Virus record (IMG/VR): IMGVR_UViG_3300042868_001142
Location: 1 to 53,613 of that record
DNA: 53,613 nucleotides
Origin: a virus
Taxonomy: Duplodnaviria > Caudoviricetes
Reading direction: 5' to 3' (one strand)
Below the pieces are notes generated by a model. It had not been told where the DNA came from, did not search any database, and saw only the letters and a list, made by a program, of their open reading frames with translations. The position numbers were made by a program, and so were the translations under genes. This document shows, one piece after another, positions 23,761-53,565 of this stretch. Positions within the stretch are counted from its first letter, which is position 1; every line of letters begins with the position of its first letter.

Positions 23761-23788
23761 GGTGGCTCAACAACTACAGGAGCGTACA

Positions 23789-24904
23789 GTGCAACACTCA
23801 AACATCGTCGGCGGCTCTACAGCCAAGCGCGTGATCGCGTGCCCCGGCTCGGTGAAGCTGGTGCAAAAGATGCCGCCGCAGCCGTCGAGCGTCCACGCTG
23901 ATCGCGGCACGATGCTGCACGACGTGATCAGCCGCATCCTGCTCGACCAAGGCGTCATCATCGGCCAGTACAAACACAAAGACCAACTACTCACACAGGA
24001 GCTTTACGATGAGAAGATTGCACCTGCCTTGGACGCGCTCGACGAGATCGATCCCTACGGTCGGCTGGTATACGAGGTTGAGACACGGGTTGGCTTCGGC
24101 GACCTTTTGCCTGGAGTGTTTGGTAGCACTGATCTTGTTGGTCGTATCGATCATCGCGCTATCGTCCTTGATTGGAAGTTTGGCGACGGTGTTGTTGTCG
24201 ATGCTGTAGAGAACGCGCAACTGATGTTCTACGCGGCAGCGGCCATGCGTACCGATGACCTGAAGTGGGCCTTCGAGGGTGCCACCGAGATCGAGTGCAT
24301 CATCGTGCAGCCGCCAGCGATCAGGCGCTGGGTGACGACCGTGGGCCGCATCAAGCAGTTCGAGCACGAGCTGGTGTCTGCGGTCAAGACCGCGCTGCGC
24401 GATGACGCGCCGCTGGCGCAGGGCGACCACTGCCGCTGGTGCGCGGCCAAGCCGATCTGCCCGCAGATGACCGGCGCTGTCGATCGCGCACTGAAGCAGC
24501 AATTGATCAACTTGGATGTTGACACGCTTGGCCGGTATCTGCACAATGCCGACCTCTTGGAGGAATGGATCAAAGACTTGCGTGCGCTGGCTTTCGGGAT
24601 GCTTGAGAAGGGCGTTAACGTGCCCGGCGTCAAGATCGTCCAGAAGCAAGCGCGGCGCAAGTGGACCGATGAGAGCAAAGCCAAGCAGGCGTTGCTCTCA
24701 CTCGGTCTGAAAGAATCTGTCGTCGTCGAGACTACGATCATGTCCCCGGCGCAGGCCGAGAAGGCGCTCAAAAAGCGCTTTAGCGAACTGCCCGAGGACT
24801 TGATCAAGTCCGAGTCGTCAGGTACGACGCTCGCCCCGGAGGATGACCCCCGGCCAGCGGTGCAGTCGTTTGTCGGGCTGTCAAAAGCCCTTTCTAAACT
24901 GTAA
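23789..24904 (+). CDS. Cas4-like PD-(D/E)xK exonuclease (DUF2800-like)
   Basis: HS..GGS.A.R..CPGS, GT.LH, GSTD, VLDWKFG, QLMFYA, C-terminal HCRWC.AK..CP; GTG start after AGGAG. Confidence 0.85.
   Translation: MQHSNIVGGSTAKRVIACPGSVKLVQKMPPQPSSVHADRGTMLHDVISRILLDQGVIIGQYKHKDQLLTQELYDEKIAPALDALDEIDPYGRLVYEVETRVGFGDLLPGVFGSTDLVGRIDHRAIVLDWKFGDGVVVDAVENAQLMFYAAAAMRTDDLKWAFEGATEIECIIVQPPAIRRWVTTVGRIKQFEHELVSAVKTALRDDAPLAQGDHCRWCAAKPICPQMTGAVDRALKQQLINLDVDTLGRYLHNADLLEEWIKDLRALAFGMLEKGVNVPGVKIVQKQARRKWTDESKAKQALLSLGLKESVVVETTIMSPAQAEKALKKRFSELPEDLIKSESSGTTLAPEDDPRPAVQSFVGLSKALSKL
24009..24209 (+). CDS. Candidate overprinted small membrane protein (+1 frame of the Cas4-like gene)
   Basis: AGGAG-7nt-ATG; basic N-terminus and about 33-aa hydrophobic C-terminus; host codons locally T-ending. 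Confidence 0.55.
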   Translation: MRRLHLPWTRSTRSIPTVGWYTRLRHGLASATFCLECLVALILLVVSIIALSSLIGSLATVLLSML

Positions 24905-24914
24905 TGGAGTTCAC

Positions 24915-25550
24915 ATGTCTAATCTCGTAAAGTTCTCTGGCGCTAACCTGCCTTCCGTCACTTCCCTGTCCACCGCGCTGCGTAGCATCGCCACCGACGT
25001 TGGTGCCTCGACCACGGCCATCATCAAGATGGACCGCACGGGGCACTGGGTCTTCGGCGCTGACCAGACCGAGGCCGAGGCCGACGCAACTTGGGCTGTC
25101 AATCCCTTCTCCTTCGTCCACGGCTTCATCGCCTGGGGCGACGGCGAGGTGCTTGGCGAGAAGCTGGTGCCTGTCACCGAGCCTCTGCCCGAGTTGGAGG
25201 CCGCGCCTCACGGCGCTAAGAAGGGCTGGGAGCCGCAGACGGGCCTGAGCCTGAAGTGCATCAGCGGCGAAGACGCCGGCATGGAAGCGCGGTTCACCAC
25301 CACCAGCGTCGGCGGCCGCAAGGCCGTGCAGGCTCTGGCTGTGGAGATCGCCGCGCAGGTTGAGAAGGACCAGTCCAAGCCGGTGCCCGTCGTCAAGCTG
25401 GGTAAAGACCACTACACGCACAAGAGCTACGGCCGTATCTATACGCCGGTGTTTGAGGTCGTGGAGTGGGTCAGCATGAATGGCGAGGCTGATGAGGCTG
25501 CGCCTGAGGCCGCGCCTGCGGCTGGCCGTCGTCGCCGCGCTGCGGTGTAA
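24915..25550 (+). CDS. Putative single-stranded DNA-binding protein
   Basis: between nuclease and polA; Y.HKSYG.IY.P.F motif; SD GGAG. Confidence 0.7.
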   Translation: MSNLVKFSGANLPSVTSLSTALRSIATDVGASTTAIIKMDRTGHWVFGADQTEAEADATWAVNPFSFVHGFIAWGDGEVLGEKLVPVTEPLPELEAAPHGAKKGWEPQTGLSLKCISGEDAGMEARFTTTSVGGRKAVQALAVEIAAQVEKDQSKPVPVVKLGKDHYTHKSYGRIYTPVFEVVEWVSMNGEADEAAPEAAPAAGRRRRAAV

Positions 25551-25556
25551 TGTAAA

Positions 25557-25585
25557 AGGGCGGGGCCGAAAGGCTCCGTCTTTTT
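25557..25585 (+). terminator. GAAA-tetraloop intrinsic terminator
   Basis: GGGCGGGGCC-GAAA-GGCTCCGTC followed by TTTTT. Confidence 0.7.
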
Positions 25586-25587
25586 CT

Positions 25588-25887
25588 ATGCTGGACGAAG
25601 ATCGCATAGACGCGATTTCAAACGCTATCGCTGAAATCGAGTCGGGTATGTTGGATGTCACCACTATCCTTGGCACTGAAGTTTCGCTGGTTCACAACAG
25701 TGTTTTGCGGAACTTAGAAGAACACGAGTTCAAGTACTTTGAACTGAAAAAAGTACTGGATAAGTTAGACGCCTTAACGCTGGAGTTGTACCGCGTTAAG
25801 AAAGGGTTCACTCCTTCAAAAGAAGATGTGGAGCTATACAAAAATTTTCGCAAAAACGCCATACGCATTTTGCAAGGTAGGCTATGA
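25588..25887 (+). CDS. AT-rich inserted hypothetical protein (moron-like, 99 aa)
   Basis: composition differs from neighbours; ATGA overlap with polA. Confidence 0.55.
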   Translation: MLDEDRIDAISNAIAEIESGMLDVTTILGTEVSLVHNSVLRNLEEHEFKYFELKKVLDKLDALTLELYRVKKGFTPSKEDVELYKNFRKNAIRILQGRL

Positions 25888-52297: not shown

Positions 52298-52894
52298 ATG
52301 GGTGTTAAATTAGTTTCGGCAAGCGGCGGCTCGGTTGAGATCAACCCGCCCGCCACCGCGAGCAGCTTCACGGCCACGATGCCCGCCGGCACTGGCAACG
52401 TGGTGGTCGCCGGCATCAACAGCGCGATTGTCTCGGGCACCGCTCAGGCATCGACGTCTGGTACGTCGATTGATTTTACCGGCATCCCGTCGTGGGTGCG
52501 GCGGGTCACGGTGATGTTCAACGGGGTGAGCACGAACGGGACTAGTTCAATTCAACTTCAAATTGGCACTAGTTCTGGGGTTGTCTCTACTGGATATCTT
52601 TCACATTCTGGTTTCATACAATCAAGCGCAGTTGGCTCAAGCGTAGCTACAACTGGCTATGTAATTGTTAATGCAGTTGCAAGCGACGTGCTTTACGGCC
52701 CATTTGTTATCACAACAACCGGGTCAAATGTATGGAACGCTTCAGGCTCATTTTTTAGAGACGCCAGCACTGACTACAGCATTATCTCCACGGGGACAAT
52801 CACCCTCGGTGGCACCCTCGACCGCGTCCGCATCACAACCGTCAACGGCACTGACGCCTTCGACGCTGGCTCCATCAACATTTTGTACGAGTAA
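52298..52894 (+). CDS. Tail fibre / receptor-binding module
   Basis: STSGTSIDFTGIPSWV.R.TV...LDRVRITT.NGTD.FDAGSINILYE. Confidence 0.6.
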   Translation: MGVKLVSASGGSVEINPPATASSFTATMPAGTGNVVVAGINSAIVSGTAQASTSGTSIDFTGIPSWVRRVTVMFNGVSTNGTSSIQLQIGTSSGVVSTGYLSHSGFIQSSAVGSSVATTGYVIVNAVASDVLYGPFVITTTGSNVWNASGSFFRDASTDYSIISTGTITLGGTLDRVRITTVNGTDAFDAGSINILYE

Positions 52895-52899
52895 ACACC

Positions 52900-53565
52900 A
52901 TGCCAACAAAAATCGATGGAAACAACGGTGTCTTGCAGTCGTATGACTTCCAAGTCCTGACAACGGGCTTCTCGTACACCTTCGCCTCGGGCACCACGAC
53001 CCTGATCGCGGTGCCCGCCGGCACGCTGGCGACGGGCACGATCACGATGCCAGGCTCGCCGGCTGACGGCATGGTGATTACCATCACCACCACGCAGCAG
53101 ATCACGGCGCTCACGATTGCCGGCAACACAGGCCAGTCGATCGGCGGCACCCAGGTGTCGCTGATGGCCGCCAACAGCGCCATGAGCTTTGTGTACCGCC
53201 TGTCCGACACAACATGGTACCGCAACAGCGCCCCGGCGCTGGGCAACATCGGCACCGCGCCCGTGTACGCCGCCCGCGCTTGGGTGAACTTCAACGGCAC
53301 GGGCACCGTGGCGATCCGCGCCTCGGGCAACGTGACTTCGATTACCGACAACGGCACGGGCGACTACACCATCAACTTCACGACGGCGATGCCGGATGCA
53401 GATTACGCAATCACTGTTGGGGCGATAAACAATGCAACAAATACAAATACAGCCAACAACATCAATCAAGGGTCATCGCCAACAACAACCTCATTCAGAA
53501 TACAACACGTTGAAAATAGCTCTCCGGCTGATACTACCTATATCAATTGCTCAGTATTCCGTTAA
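52900..53565 (+). CDS. Tail fibre / receptor-binding module
   Basis: ARAWVNFNG...NV.SITD.GTGDY..NF...M.DA.Y. Confidence 0.6.
   Translation: MPTKIDGNNGVLQSYDFQVLTTGFSYTFASGTTTLIAVPAGTLATGTITMPGSPADGMVITITTTQQITALTIAGNTGQSIGGTQVSLMAANSAMSFVYRLSDTTWYRNSAPALGNIGTAPVYAARAWVNFNGTGTVAIRASGNVTSITDNGTGDYTINFTTAMPDADYAITVGAINNATNTNTANNINQGSSPTTTSFRIQHVENSSPADTTYINCSVFR

Follow-up and report, generated by a model that had tools for sequence, protein, structure and literature searches.

Lysis proteins of the MS2 L type are small and encoded in an alternative frame, with a basic N-terminal half, a hydrophobic C-terminal half and a functional Leu-Ser motif. The o-spanin Rz1 of lambdoid phages is encoded by a +1 gene embedded in the i-spanin gene Rz, and has a lipoprotein signal and a lipobox Cys. 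Holins belong to lysis cassettes and have one or more membrane spans followed by a charged C-terminal tail, and small phage membrane proteins for superinfection exclusion or host interference form a general class encoded by free-standing genes. In PhiX174, gene E is nested in the +1 frame of gene D, whose T-ending codons are described as giving the Leu-rich transmembrane domain of E (PMC8227390). The locus considered here is a 66-codon open reading frame (ORF) in the +1 frame of a Cas4-like nuclease gene of a tailed phage, the 53.6-kb virus record IMGVR_UViG_3300042868_001142 (Duplodnaviria; Caudoviricetes; 58% GC), of which positions 1 to 53,613, the whole stretch analysed, are called the window below. 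Features of the sequence indicate that this ORF is probably a real, translated, accessory overprinted gene for a single-pass membrane protein.

The +1 ORF and its predicted product

The nuclease gene (23789..24904), the +1 ORF with its signals and the T-rich patch are on the plus strand. Inside the nuclease gene the host codons CAG GAG form an AGGAG motif resembling a Shine-Dalgarno (SD) sequence (23997..24001), and after a 7-nt spacer the Asp-Glu codons GAT-G provide the ATG start (24009..24011) of the +1 ORF (24009..24209). The ORF has 66 codons and a TAG stop (24207..24209), which arises from host GTA-G, a rare Val codon followed by Glu. The encoded peptide is Arg-rich in its N-terminal half, with 8 Arg among the first 26 residues, and hydrophobic in its C-terminal half, where 34 hydrophobic or small residues extend up to the C-terminus (24105..24206). 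This stretch is a putative single transmembrane helix in the +1 translation, and the ORF terminates within it. The motif with its spacer and ATG, the ORF length and the character of both halves of the peptide are all as the original prediction had placed them, and the offset of the ORF from the frame of GTG 23789 was confirmed: host third positions are the second positions of the +1 frame. A latent alternative start lies at 24072..24074, where the window has ACG; in other lineages AAGGAG precedes either an ATG at this site or an in-register TTG two codons further on.

In the 25 large ORFs of the window, 16 ATG-ORFs of at least 60 codons are embedded in alternative frames, 13 in the +1 and 3 in the +2 frame, and among these the peptide has the highest 19-residue Kyte-Doolittle maximum (3.01). 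A maximum of at least 3.0 was reached in 0 of 1,500 synonymous resamples of the host gene. The length of the ORF is unremarkable; the anomaly is the bias for T at host third positions (T3), and hence the hydrophobicity. No family was found for the peptide in Pfam, in PHROGs, in a predicted-protein search or in the ESM Atlas, where the top score of 0.82 is under the Atlas's own reliability line. Dozens of contigs carry the +1 ORF; gene callers never report ORFs nested in longer genes.

T-ending codons in the catalytic block

The T3-rich synonymous patch of the host gene, defined by codon counts and by the T3 profile of the family, occupies 24089..24208 and lies over the conserved catalytic block VGFGDLLPGVFGSTDLVGRIDHRAIVLDWKFGDGVVVDA. 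In the window, T-ending codons number 21 of 34 at 24104-24205 and 3 of 34 at 24209-24310, exactly as counted by hand in the original prediction, and 58 of 372 across the host gene. The amino acids of the tract and the codon usage of the 25 large ORFs give an expectation of 7.3 T-ending codons in 34 (Poisson-binomial P(>=21) 2.1e-7), and the tract is the only one of 11,829 segments of 34 codons that reaches 21. With segments of 24 codons the patch has a z of 5.1, barely above the T-rich patches of genes with lower GC at third positions (GC3), which have z 4.8-5.0.

The hydrophobicity of the +1 peptide follows from the T bias, and one genome can therefore not decide between the explanations; only comparison can. 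A blastn search with the host gene against 50,697 phage records gave no match, so relatives were sought by protein. The host family was matched in 1,224 phage records, the nearest named record being 52.8% identical. Two scans of viral contigs yielded 160 loci, and a scan of metagenome contigs yielded 80 more; the latter scan gave few sequences at >=90% identity and served as a replication set. The codon alignment comprised 138 distinct full-length genes with 51-100% amino acid (aa) identity, from 157 genes of at least 1,000 nt, shorter ones having been dropped. Homologues with a tract T3 of at least 0.38 were classed as T-rich, and 90 of the 138 qualify.

In 72 distinct sequences T3 is 0.38-0.50 over 24089-24208 and roughly 0.06-0.27 elsewhere, and the peak lies exactly on the catalytic block, where aa conservation is 0.86-0.98. 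The patch recurs in most GC-rich relatives. It is absent from the distant GC-rich DUF2800 genes of Ralstonia C22, Octadecabacter BD1 and Sinorhizobium phiM5 (T3 in the tract and in the rest of the gene 0.09/0.10, 0.12/0.09 and 0.16/0.17, respectively), and also from whole lineages of the nuclease subfamily, in which C is used instead.

The choice of T depends on the codon box. In the 72 GC-rich T-rich sequences the T fraction in the tract is 0.96 for CCN, 0.77 for ACN, 0.73 for GCN and 0.69 for CTN, and 0.39 for GGN and 0.41 for GTN. In CCN, ACN and GCN, C or G in place of T gives proline or arginine in the +1 frame; in GGN it gives alanine or glycine. Across 36 synonymous sites, T fraction and the +1 hydropathy gained by T over C are positively correlated (Spearman 0.54, P 7e-4), and xCN sites differ from xGN sites (Mann-Whitney P 0.005; 0.001 for enrichment), a correlation that is supportive and not decisive because the sites are few and grouped in classes. 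A-ending codons make up at most 0.10 in seven of the eight codon boxes of the tract in the same 72 sequences, the exception being TCN (0.21). The lower-GC sister clade has A in 0.62 of GCN and 0.43 of ACN codons of the tract. An excess of T alone, with low A at third positions (A3), argues against simple low-GC import, which the original prediction had put forward as an alternative in the form of a recombinant tract from a low-GC phage. The patch does move by recombination, as described below, but the low-GC source fits poorly; the patch being T-specific and the lower-GC sister clade using A-ending codons, such a tract was rejected as the main cause.

Start signals in relatives

Homologues were scored for a +1 ATG with an SD-consensus 5-mer 4-11 nt upstream and no stop through the hydrophobic core (24113-24188), and the expectation was obtained by resampling the upstream synonymous codons given each sequence's own protein. 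SD and ATG are present in 57 of the 90 T-rich sequences, compared with 9.8 expected from own codon usage and 11.9 from local usage, and in 1 of 37 T-poor sequences (1.1 expected from own usage). When sequences are grouped into clusters at 80% nt identity, the signal is found in 10 of 15 T-rich clusters (1.6 expected from own and 1.9 from local usage) and in 3 of 20 other clusters (1.3 from own usage). A control scan of 38 combinations of segment and frame along the gene gave an excess only at three +1 targets upstream of or at the tract, with 45 observed vs 15.0 expected, 47 vs 11.7 and 60 vs 12.8; the remaining 35 combinations gave 0-1 observed vs 0-3.6 expected. The replication set from metagenome contigs contained 78 full genes, of which 62 were distinct and new. 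Among its 45 T-rich sequences, 17 have ATG with SD (3.3 expected) and 35 have ATG, GTG or TTG with SD, and a start with SD occurs in 1 of the other 17. The conservation of SD, ATG and open frame in homologues that the original prediction called for is thus seen in the majority of T-rich relatives, but the ends of the ORF shift and some starts are absent.

Three start positions are used. At codon 0, the site of the window, CAG GAG ... GAT GAG reads as AGGAG, 7 nt and ATG. At codon 21, AAG GAG ATG nnn TAT GAA reads as AAGGAG, 7 nt and ATG, and in a large group the Tyr codon has become ATT, giving a TTG start. At codon 11, GGAGG is followed after 6 nt by ATG. Internal SD and ATG positions common to at least 8 of the 138 sequences number three, two of which are the +1 starts at 24009 (45 sequences) and 24072 (19 sequences).

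The synonymous sites that form these signals are conserved together. Among the 53 homologues with the codon-0 ATG (21 clusters at 88% identity), the two sites that make AGGAG are G in 0.89 and 0.94 of clusters, and six other Gln/Glu/Lys sites of the same block are G in 0.26-0.71 of clusters. In the 85 homologues without this ATG the AGGAG-making sites are G at 0.15 and 0.69. Among the clusters with AGGAG (19, from 49 homologues), the ATG-making Asp codon ends in T at 0.88, compared with 0.17 where AGGAG is absent; for eleven other two-fold sites ending in a pyrimidine, the T fraction in the AGGAG clusters is 0.06-0.76. The Tyr codon at codon 21 ends in T in 0.64 of clusters without the upstream AGGAG and in 0.17 of clusters with it, and because this site runs opposite to the Asp site at codon 0, the two starts are mutually exclusive. 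Within the block, deep lineages with a common start differ in 0.45-0.65 of the codons for the same amino acid, as much as sequences of different classes do, and neutral sites should therefore be randomised. When the block is left out of the tree, 11 independent pairs contrast in T-richness, and among them the start signal changes the same way in ~6, the opposite way in 0 and not at all in ~5 (median sign-test p 0.03). Selection against AGGAG where the start is absent was also considered, as the rare CAA at 23996 is conserved there; it was dropped, nearby Gln/Glu sites being A-rich as well.

In one lineage of 11 loci at 64-66% aa identity (L101, L103, L105, L110, L113, L115, L116, L118, L120, L144, L156), the +1 ORF opens with the same AGGAG, 7 nt and ATG and is 59 codons longer, giving 125 aa (156 in L156). 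Its tail is Ser/Pro/Arg-rich, and R-T-H-A-P breaks the hydrophobic stretch; if there is a functional core, it would be the first ~19-residue helix.

Directly supported by these comparisons are the T-specific synonymous bias, its dependence on the +1 outcome of the alternative base, and the selective conservation of the start signals. Translation, membrane insertion and any function of the +1 product are proposed from sequence, as follows. The internal AGGAG (23997-24001) would recruit ribosomes on the same early or replication-module mRNA, with initiation at ATG 24009. Read one base further on, the acidic nuclease helix would supply the basic (Arg/Lys-rich) N-terminal segment, and the Gly/Val/Asp/Leu/Phe-rich catalytic block with its T-ending codons would supply a Val/Leu/Ile/Phe run. 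The product would be a single-pass inner-membrane protein of ~66 aa, with the basic N-terminal end predicted to be cytoplasmic by the positive-inside rule. The gene would be present in some lineages and absent in others, and would be shuffled by short-patch recombination. The best guess for its function is a dispensable membrane protein of the host-interference or superinfection-exclusion type, expressed with the replication genes; the patchy distribution and the placement in the replication module would suit a dispensable accessory protein acting at the membrane.

Alternative explanations

The ORF could also be a by-product. An old T-rich allele of the catalytic block, with a neutral compositional history or imported as a short patch, would automatically have an open and hydrophobic +1 frame, the starts would be chance hitch-hikers of two or three ancient haplotypes, and nothing would be purposefully translated. 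This was held to be probable before the start-signal comparison changed the reading, and now appears possible but rather doubtful. The observations that weigh against a translated +1 gene, most of which an incidental origin would explain, are the following.

T at +1 second positions mechanically gives both hydrophobicity and lack of stops, and a +1 ATG-ORF of at least 66 codons appears somewhere in the gene in 21.7% of the 1,500 synonymous resamples. An ATG with an open frame of at least 60 codons is likewise present in 28% of 5,000 codon permutations within the region, and the 25 large ORFs hold 13 embedded +1 ATG-ORFs of at least 60 codons. The genome is a compositional mosaic with other T-rich patches of nearly the same z. 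No predicted protein of 36-116 aa resembling the peptide was found in a collection of 5.8 billion proteins, and the RNA contigs recovered (4 runs) stop short of the +1 ORF and are silent on its expression.

Host synonymous variability over the overlap, proposed with the original prediction as a check, does not show the reduction expected of an overlap of the PhiX174 E type: observed/expected is 1.2-1.3 over all pairs of 66 sequences, and in a chain of 30 sequences with ATG 24009 it is 1.05 in the N-terminal part and 1.16 in the tract (1.05-1.30 overall). A deficit is confined to the seven closest sequences, which vary at 4 sites in 24008-24208 (201 nt) and at none in 24108-24219, and this could be explained by recent shared ancestry. 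The synonymous-rate scan was first taken as a near-refutation and later judged insufficient as a decisive test, because the intermediate T/C frequencies of the tract inflate pairwise differences and because a membrane helix constrains composition more strongly than single sites. Window-averaged scans of this kind can miss a low-complexity overlapping product under compositional, not site-by-site, constraint.

The ends of the ORF are not stable. ATG 24009 is absent in most sequences below ~77% identity, many of which have +1 stops. The start is found at three positions and the stop at -13 to +59 codons among homologues, the stop-making GTA at the 24207 site being present in 27 of 72 sequences. 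Even at 89-91% aa identity three relatives (L007, L011 and L021) stop at +1 codon 54, giving 53 aa; these early stops, together with the whole lineages that have no T bias, are outcomes that the original prediction had named as counting against it. About a quarter of the T-rich sequences (22 of 90) have no SD with an ATG, GTG or TTG start, among them the whole lower-GC clade (tract T3 0.51-0.54) and the pair L049/L051 (T3 0.59-0.62), and T-richness can therefore exist without a recognisable start.

Signals and patch also share a history. The flanks 23969-24058 and 24209-24268 are 92-98% identical between L056 and L058, whereas their tracts are 67-75% identical, with amino-acid changes and an AGC/TCG serine switch, and it follows that the patch has been exchanged by recombination. 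Hypermutation or single-stranded DNA damage (C>T, G>T) was rejected for this pair on the grounds that the alleles also differ by those amino acids and by the serine switch. Since patch and starts are linked in a recombining block of ~200 nt, lineages are not independent, and the P-values given above are too small by an unknown factor. The codon-21 ATG is 6 codons from the patch and could be its by-product (expected 0.2-0.44 per sequence). SD-like 5-mers are common, 6-7 per gene, and they differ between T-rich and other sequences at irrelevant sites too, e.g., at 23851 (22 vs 0), which indicates strong phylogenetic structure.

An incidental origin does not account equally well for the remaining evidence. 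The patch is T-specific with low A3, unlike the tract of the low-GC clade, and the preference for T follows the +1 hydropathy cost of its alternatives. The excess of SD and ATG is limited to one place and frame, and persists both under the local-composition null and in new sequences. The sites that make SD and ATG are conserved while neighbouring synonymous sites are not, despite near-saturated synonymous divergence between lineages, and the starts exclude each other. A T-only bias tracking the +1 outcome, a start excess confined in place and frame, conserved signal sites and exclusive starts are hard to obtain from a by-product. The claim of the original prediction that the T bias is due to a hidden +1 gene needing its helix is thus strengthened by the T-rich relatives, which keep SD and start where T-poor ones do not, and weakened by the unreduced variability and by the lineages without the bias.

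It is improbable that the patch is a signal serving the nuclease, in which wobble-decoded NNT codons and an SD-like motif would slow or tune translation of the catalytic core (co-translational folding, cofactor loading) and the +1 ATG would be incidental to T-ending Asp and Tyr codons. Both the codons and the motif upstream are in principle able to slow ribosomes, and the patch coincides with the most conserved protein block. Other blocks, 23789-23860 and 24419-24493, are equally conserved and have T3 of 0.08-0.13, the rarer A-ending codons are not enriched, and the feature is absent in the three distant GC-rich DUF2800 genes and in whole lineages of the subfamily. Tuning of translation would leave unexplained the fixed spacing of 6-8 nt from SD to start, the frame specificity, the exclusive starts and the dependence on the +1 amino acid.

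A DNA or RNA element imposing its composition on the tract (an origin or unwinding element, a protein-binding array, a promoter or an RNA structure) would suit the local GC, down to 0.50, and the AT skew of -0.48, but is very unlikely: scans of the tract found no repeat, iteron or inverted repeat and no promoter- or terminator-like site, its synonymous sites lack the conservation that a sequence-specific element would need, and in an unwinding element A would serve as well as T.

The preferred reading thus remains an overprinted membrane-protein gene. A wider proposal, for which the chances seem about even, is that a lake-water phage family carries a polymorphic hidden gene for a single-pass membrane protein, overprinted on the core of a Cas4-like nuclease. 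It would have mutually exclusive alternative starts, two well supported and a third rare, and its T-rich 'on' and C-rich 'off' alleles would be swapped by short-patch recombination. The family would then offer a natural series of de novo gene birth, tuning and loss within an essential-type enzyme gene of double-stranded (ds) DNA phages.

The host nuclease gene and its neighbourhood

The stretch is widely carried in lake-water metagenome runs, with at least 80% of sampled words in 14 runs. The host gene encodes a DUF2800/PD-(D/E)XK (Cas4-like) exonuclease of 371 aa. Its GTG start at 23789 was picked from AGGAG at 23778-23782 followed by 6 nt, and from homologues beginning with MQHS or VQHS. The Cas4-like assignment of the original prediction is borne out by matches to Pfam DUF2800 (E 8.6e-59, residues 8-356) and PDDEXK_1 (E 1.8e-13) and to the PHROG family phrog_69, exonuclease (E 3e-73). 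By eye, the translation contains GSTD ... LDWK, and Cys residues in ACPGS and CRWCAAKPIC, which are candidates for the catalytic D ... (D/E)xK motif and the four-cysteine cluster of a Cas4-like nuclease. A PDB sequence search with the host protein found no relative against which the motifs could be aligned.

At the alignment position of window 24587 an in-frame ATG occurs in 22 of 138 homologues, with an SD-like 5-mer in 13 of 138, a possible initiation site for a shorter nuclease in some lineages. The 3' end of the gene (24713-24901) has a synonymous observed/expected of 0.36-0.61 (z down to -8), and relatives that are otherwise divergent, e.g., the window and L007, or L035 and L049, are 97-100% identical there. 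Most simply this is a recently shared recombination segment that continues into the following gene; an element regulating that downstream gene is a less simple possibility. A sigma-70-like site lies inside the gene at 24519-24547 (TTGACA, 17 nt, CACAAT; 10 of 12 positions matching). Six RNA runs contain small shares of the stretch. Coverage by metatranscriptome contigs, from 4 runs, is confined to 24571-24950, and the left ends of these contigs are at 24571, 24746, 24747 and 24763. These ends and the sigma-70-like site give a weak hint of an internal transcript start for downstream genes.

The nuclease gene opens a replication module and is followed by the gene of a phrog_9528 protein, a small low-GC ORF, and genes for a family-A DNA polymerase and a primase-like protein. 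The small ORF (25480-25887), between the phrog_9528 and DNA polymerase genes, has a GC of 0.40-0.43 (25650-25850) compared with 0.6-0.7 in its neighbours, and matches neither a Pfam nor a PHROG family; its appearance suggests an inserted moron-type gene. Across the window, crude ORF calls have GC3 values between 0.49 and 0.86, and T-rich patches at z 4-5 occur in several genes, which is consistent with a compositional mosaic formed by frequent exchange among phages differing in base composition. The highest T3 among large ORFs, 0.35, is found in the minus-strand ORF 52774-53469. It holds a nested +1 ATG-ORF of 124 codons with start at 53249 and the second-highest hydropathy (2.85), so that either the ORF was called in the wrong frame or the window has a further hydrophobic alternative frame here.

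Comparison with known systems

Full-text literature searches gave, among the papers listed, no report of an overlapping gene in a DUF2800 nuclease. If the +1 ORF is what it appears to be, it is likely a natural example of gene birth by overprinting on an older gene, and would add a dsDNA tailed phage to the short list of nested +1 membrane-protein genes. The conserved PD-(D/E)XK core would be a ready template for a transmembrane helix, its Gly/Val/Asp/Leu/Phe codons needing only a third-position T. The many natural alleles, with three start positions and with or without the helix, would be of use for the study of overprinting and of the synonymous freedom lent by an enzyme gene.

By the features checked, the +1 product is neither a spanin nor a holin. 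It resembles Rz1 as a predicted small envelope protein encoded by an embedded +1 gene in a dsDNA tailed phage, but its host gene is a nuclease among replication genes, and neither a lipoprotein signal nor a lipobox Cys is apparent: neither Cys of the peptide is preceded by a small residue, as the lipobox rule requires. Unlike a holin gene, the ORF has an exonuclease, a phrog_9528 protein, a DNA polymerase and a primase as neighbours, and it ends inside its hydrophobic stretch. With MS2 L it shares the layout only, a basic N-terminal followed by a hydrophobic C-terminal part; there is no homology, and the genome is dsDNA here and single-stranded RNA in MS2. The peptide does hold Leu-Ser dipeptides, whose functional role cannot be judged from their presence. 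Its size, single predicted span, early-region context and patchy accessory distribution among close relatives are those of the superinfection-exclusion class, in which, however, genes are free-standing and show no homology to the peptide.

The membrane segment of PhiX174 E is N-terminal, and this order is reversed in the +1 ORF. There is no sequence relationship between the two, and in the present case the genome is a large dsDNA tailed-phage genome, the host gene belongs to a replication module and many relatives are without the gene. The features of an E-type gene seen here are the +1 nesting in an older, widely conserved gene, a hydrophobic segment supplied by T3, and own start signals conserved in relatives whose lineages are not independent. 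As E in D is described, both are wholly nested +1 overprints in which the third-position T of the older frame becomes the second-position T of the new one and gives a transmembrane segment (PMC8227390).

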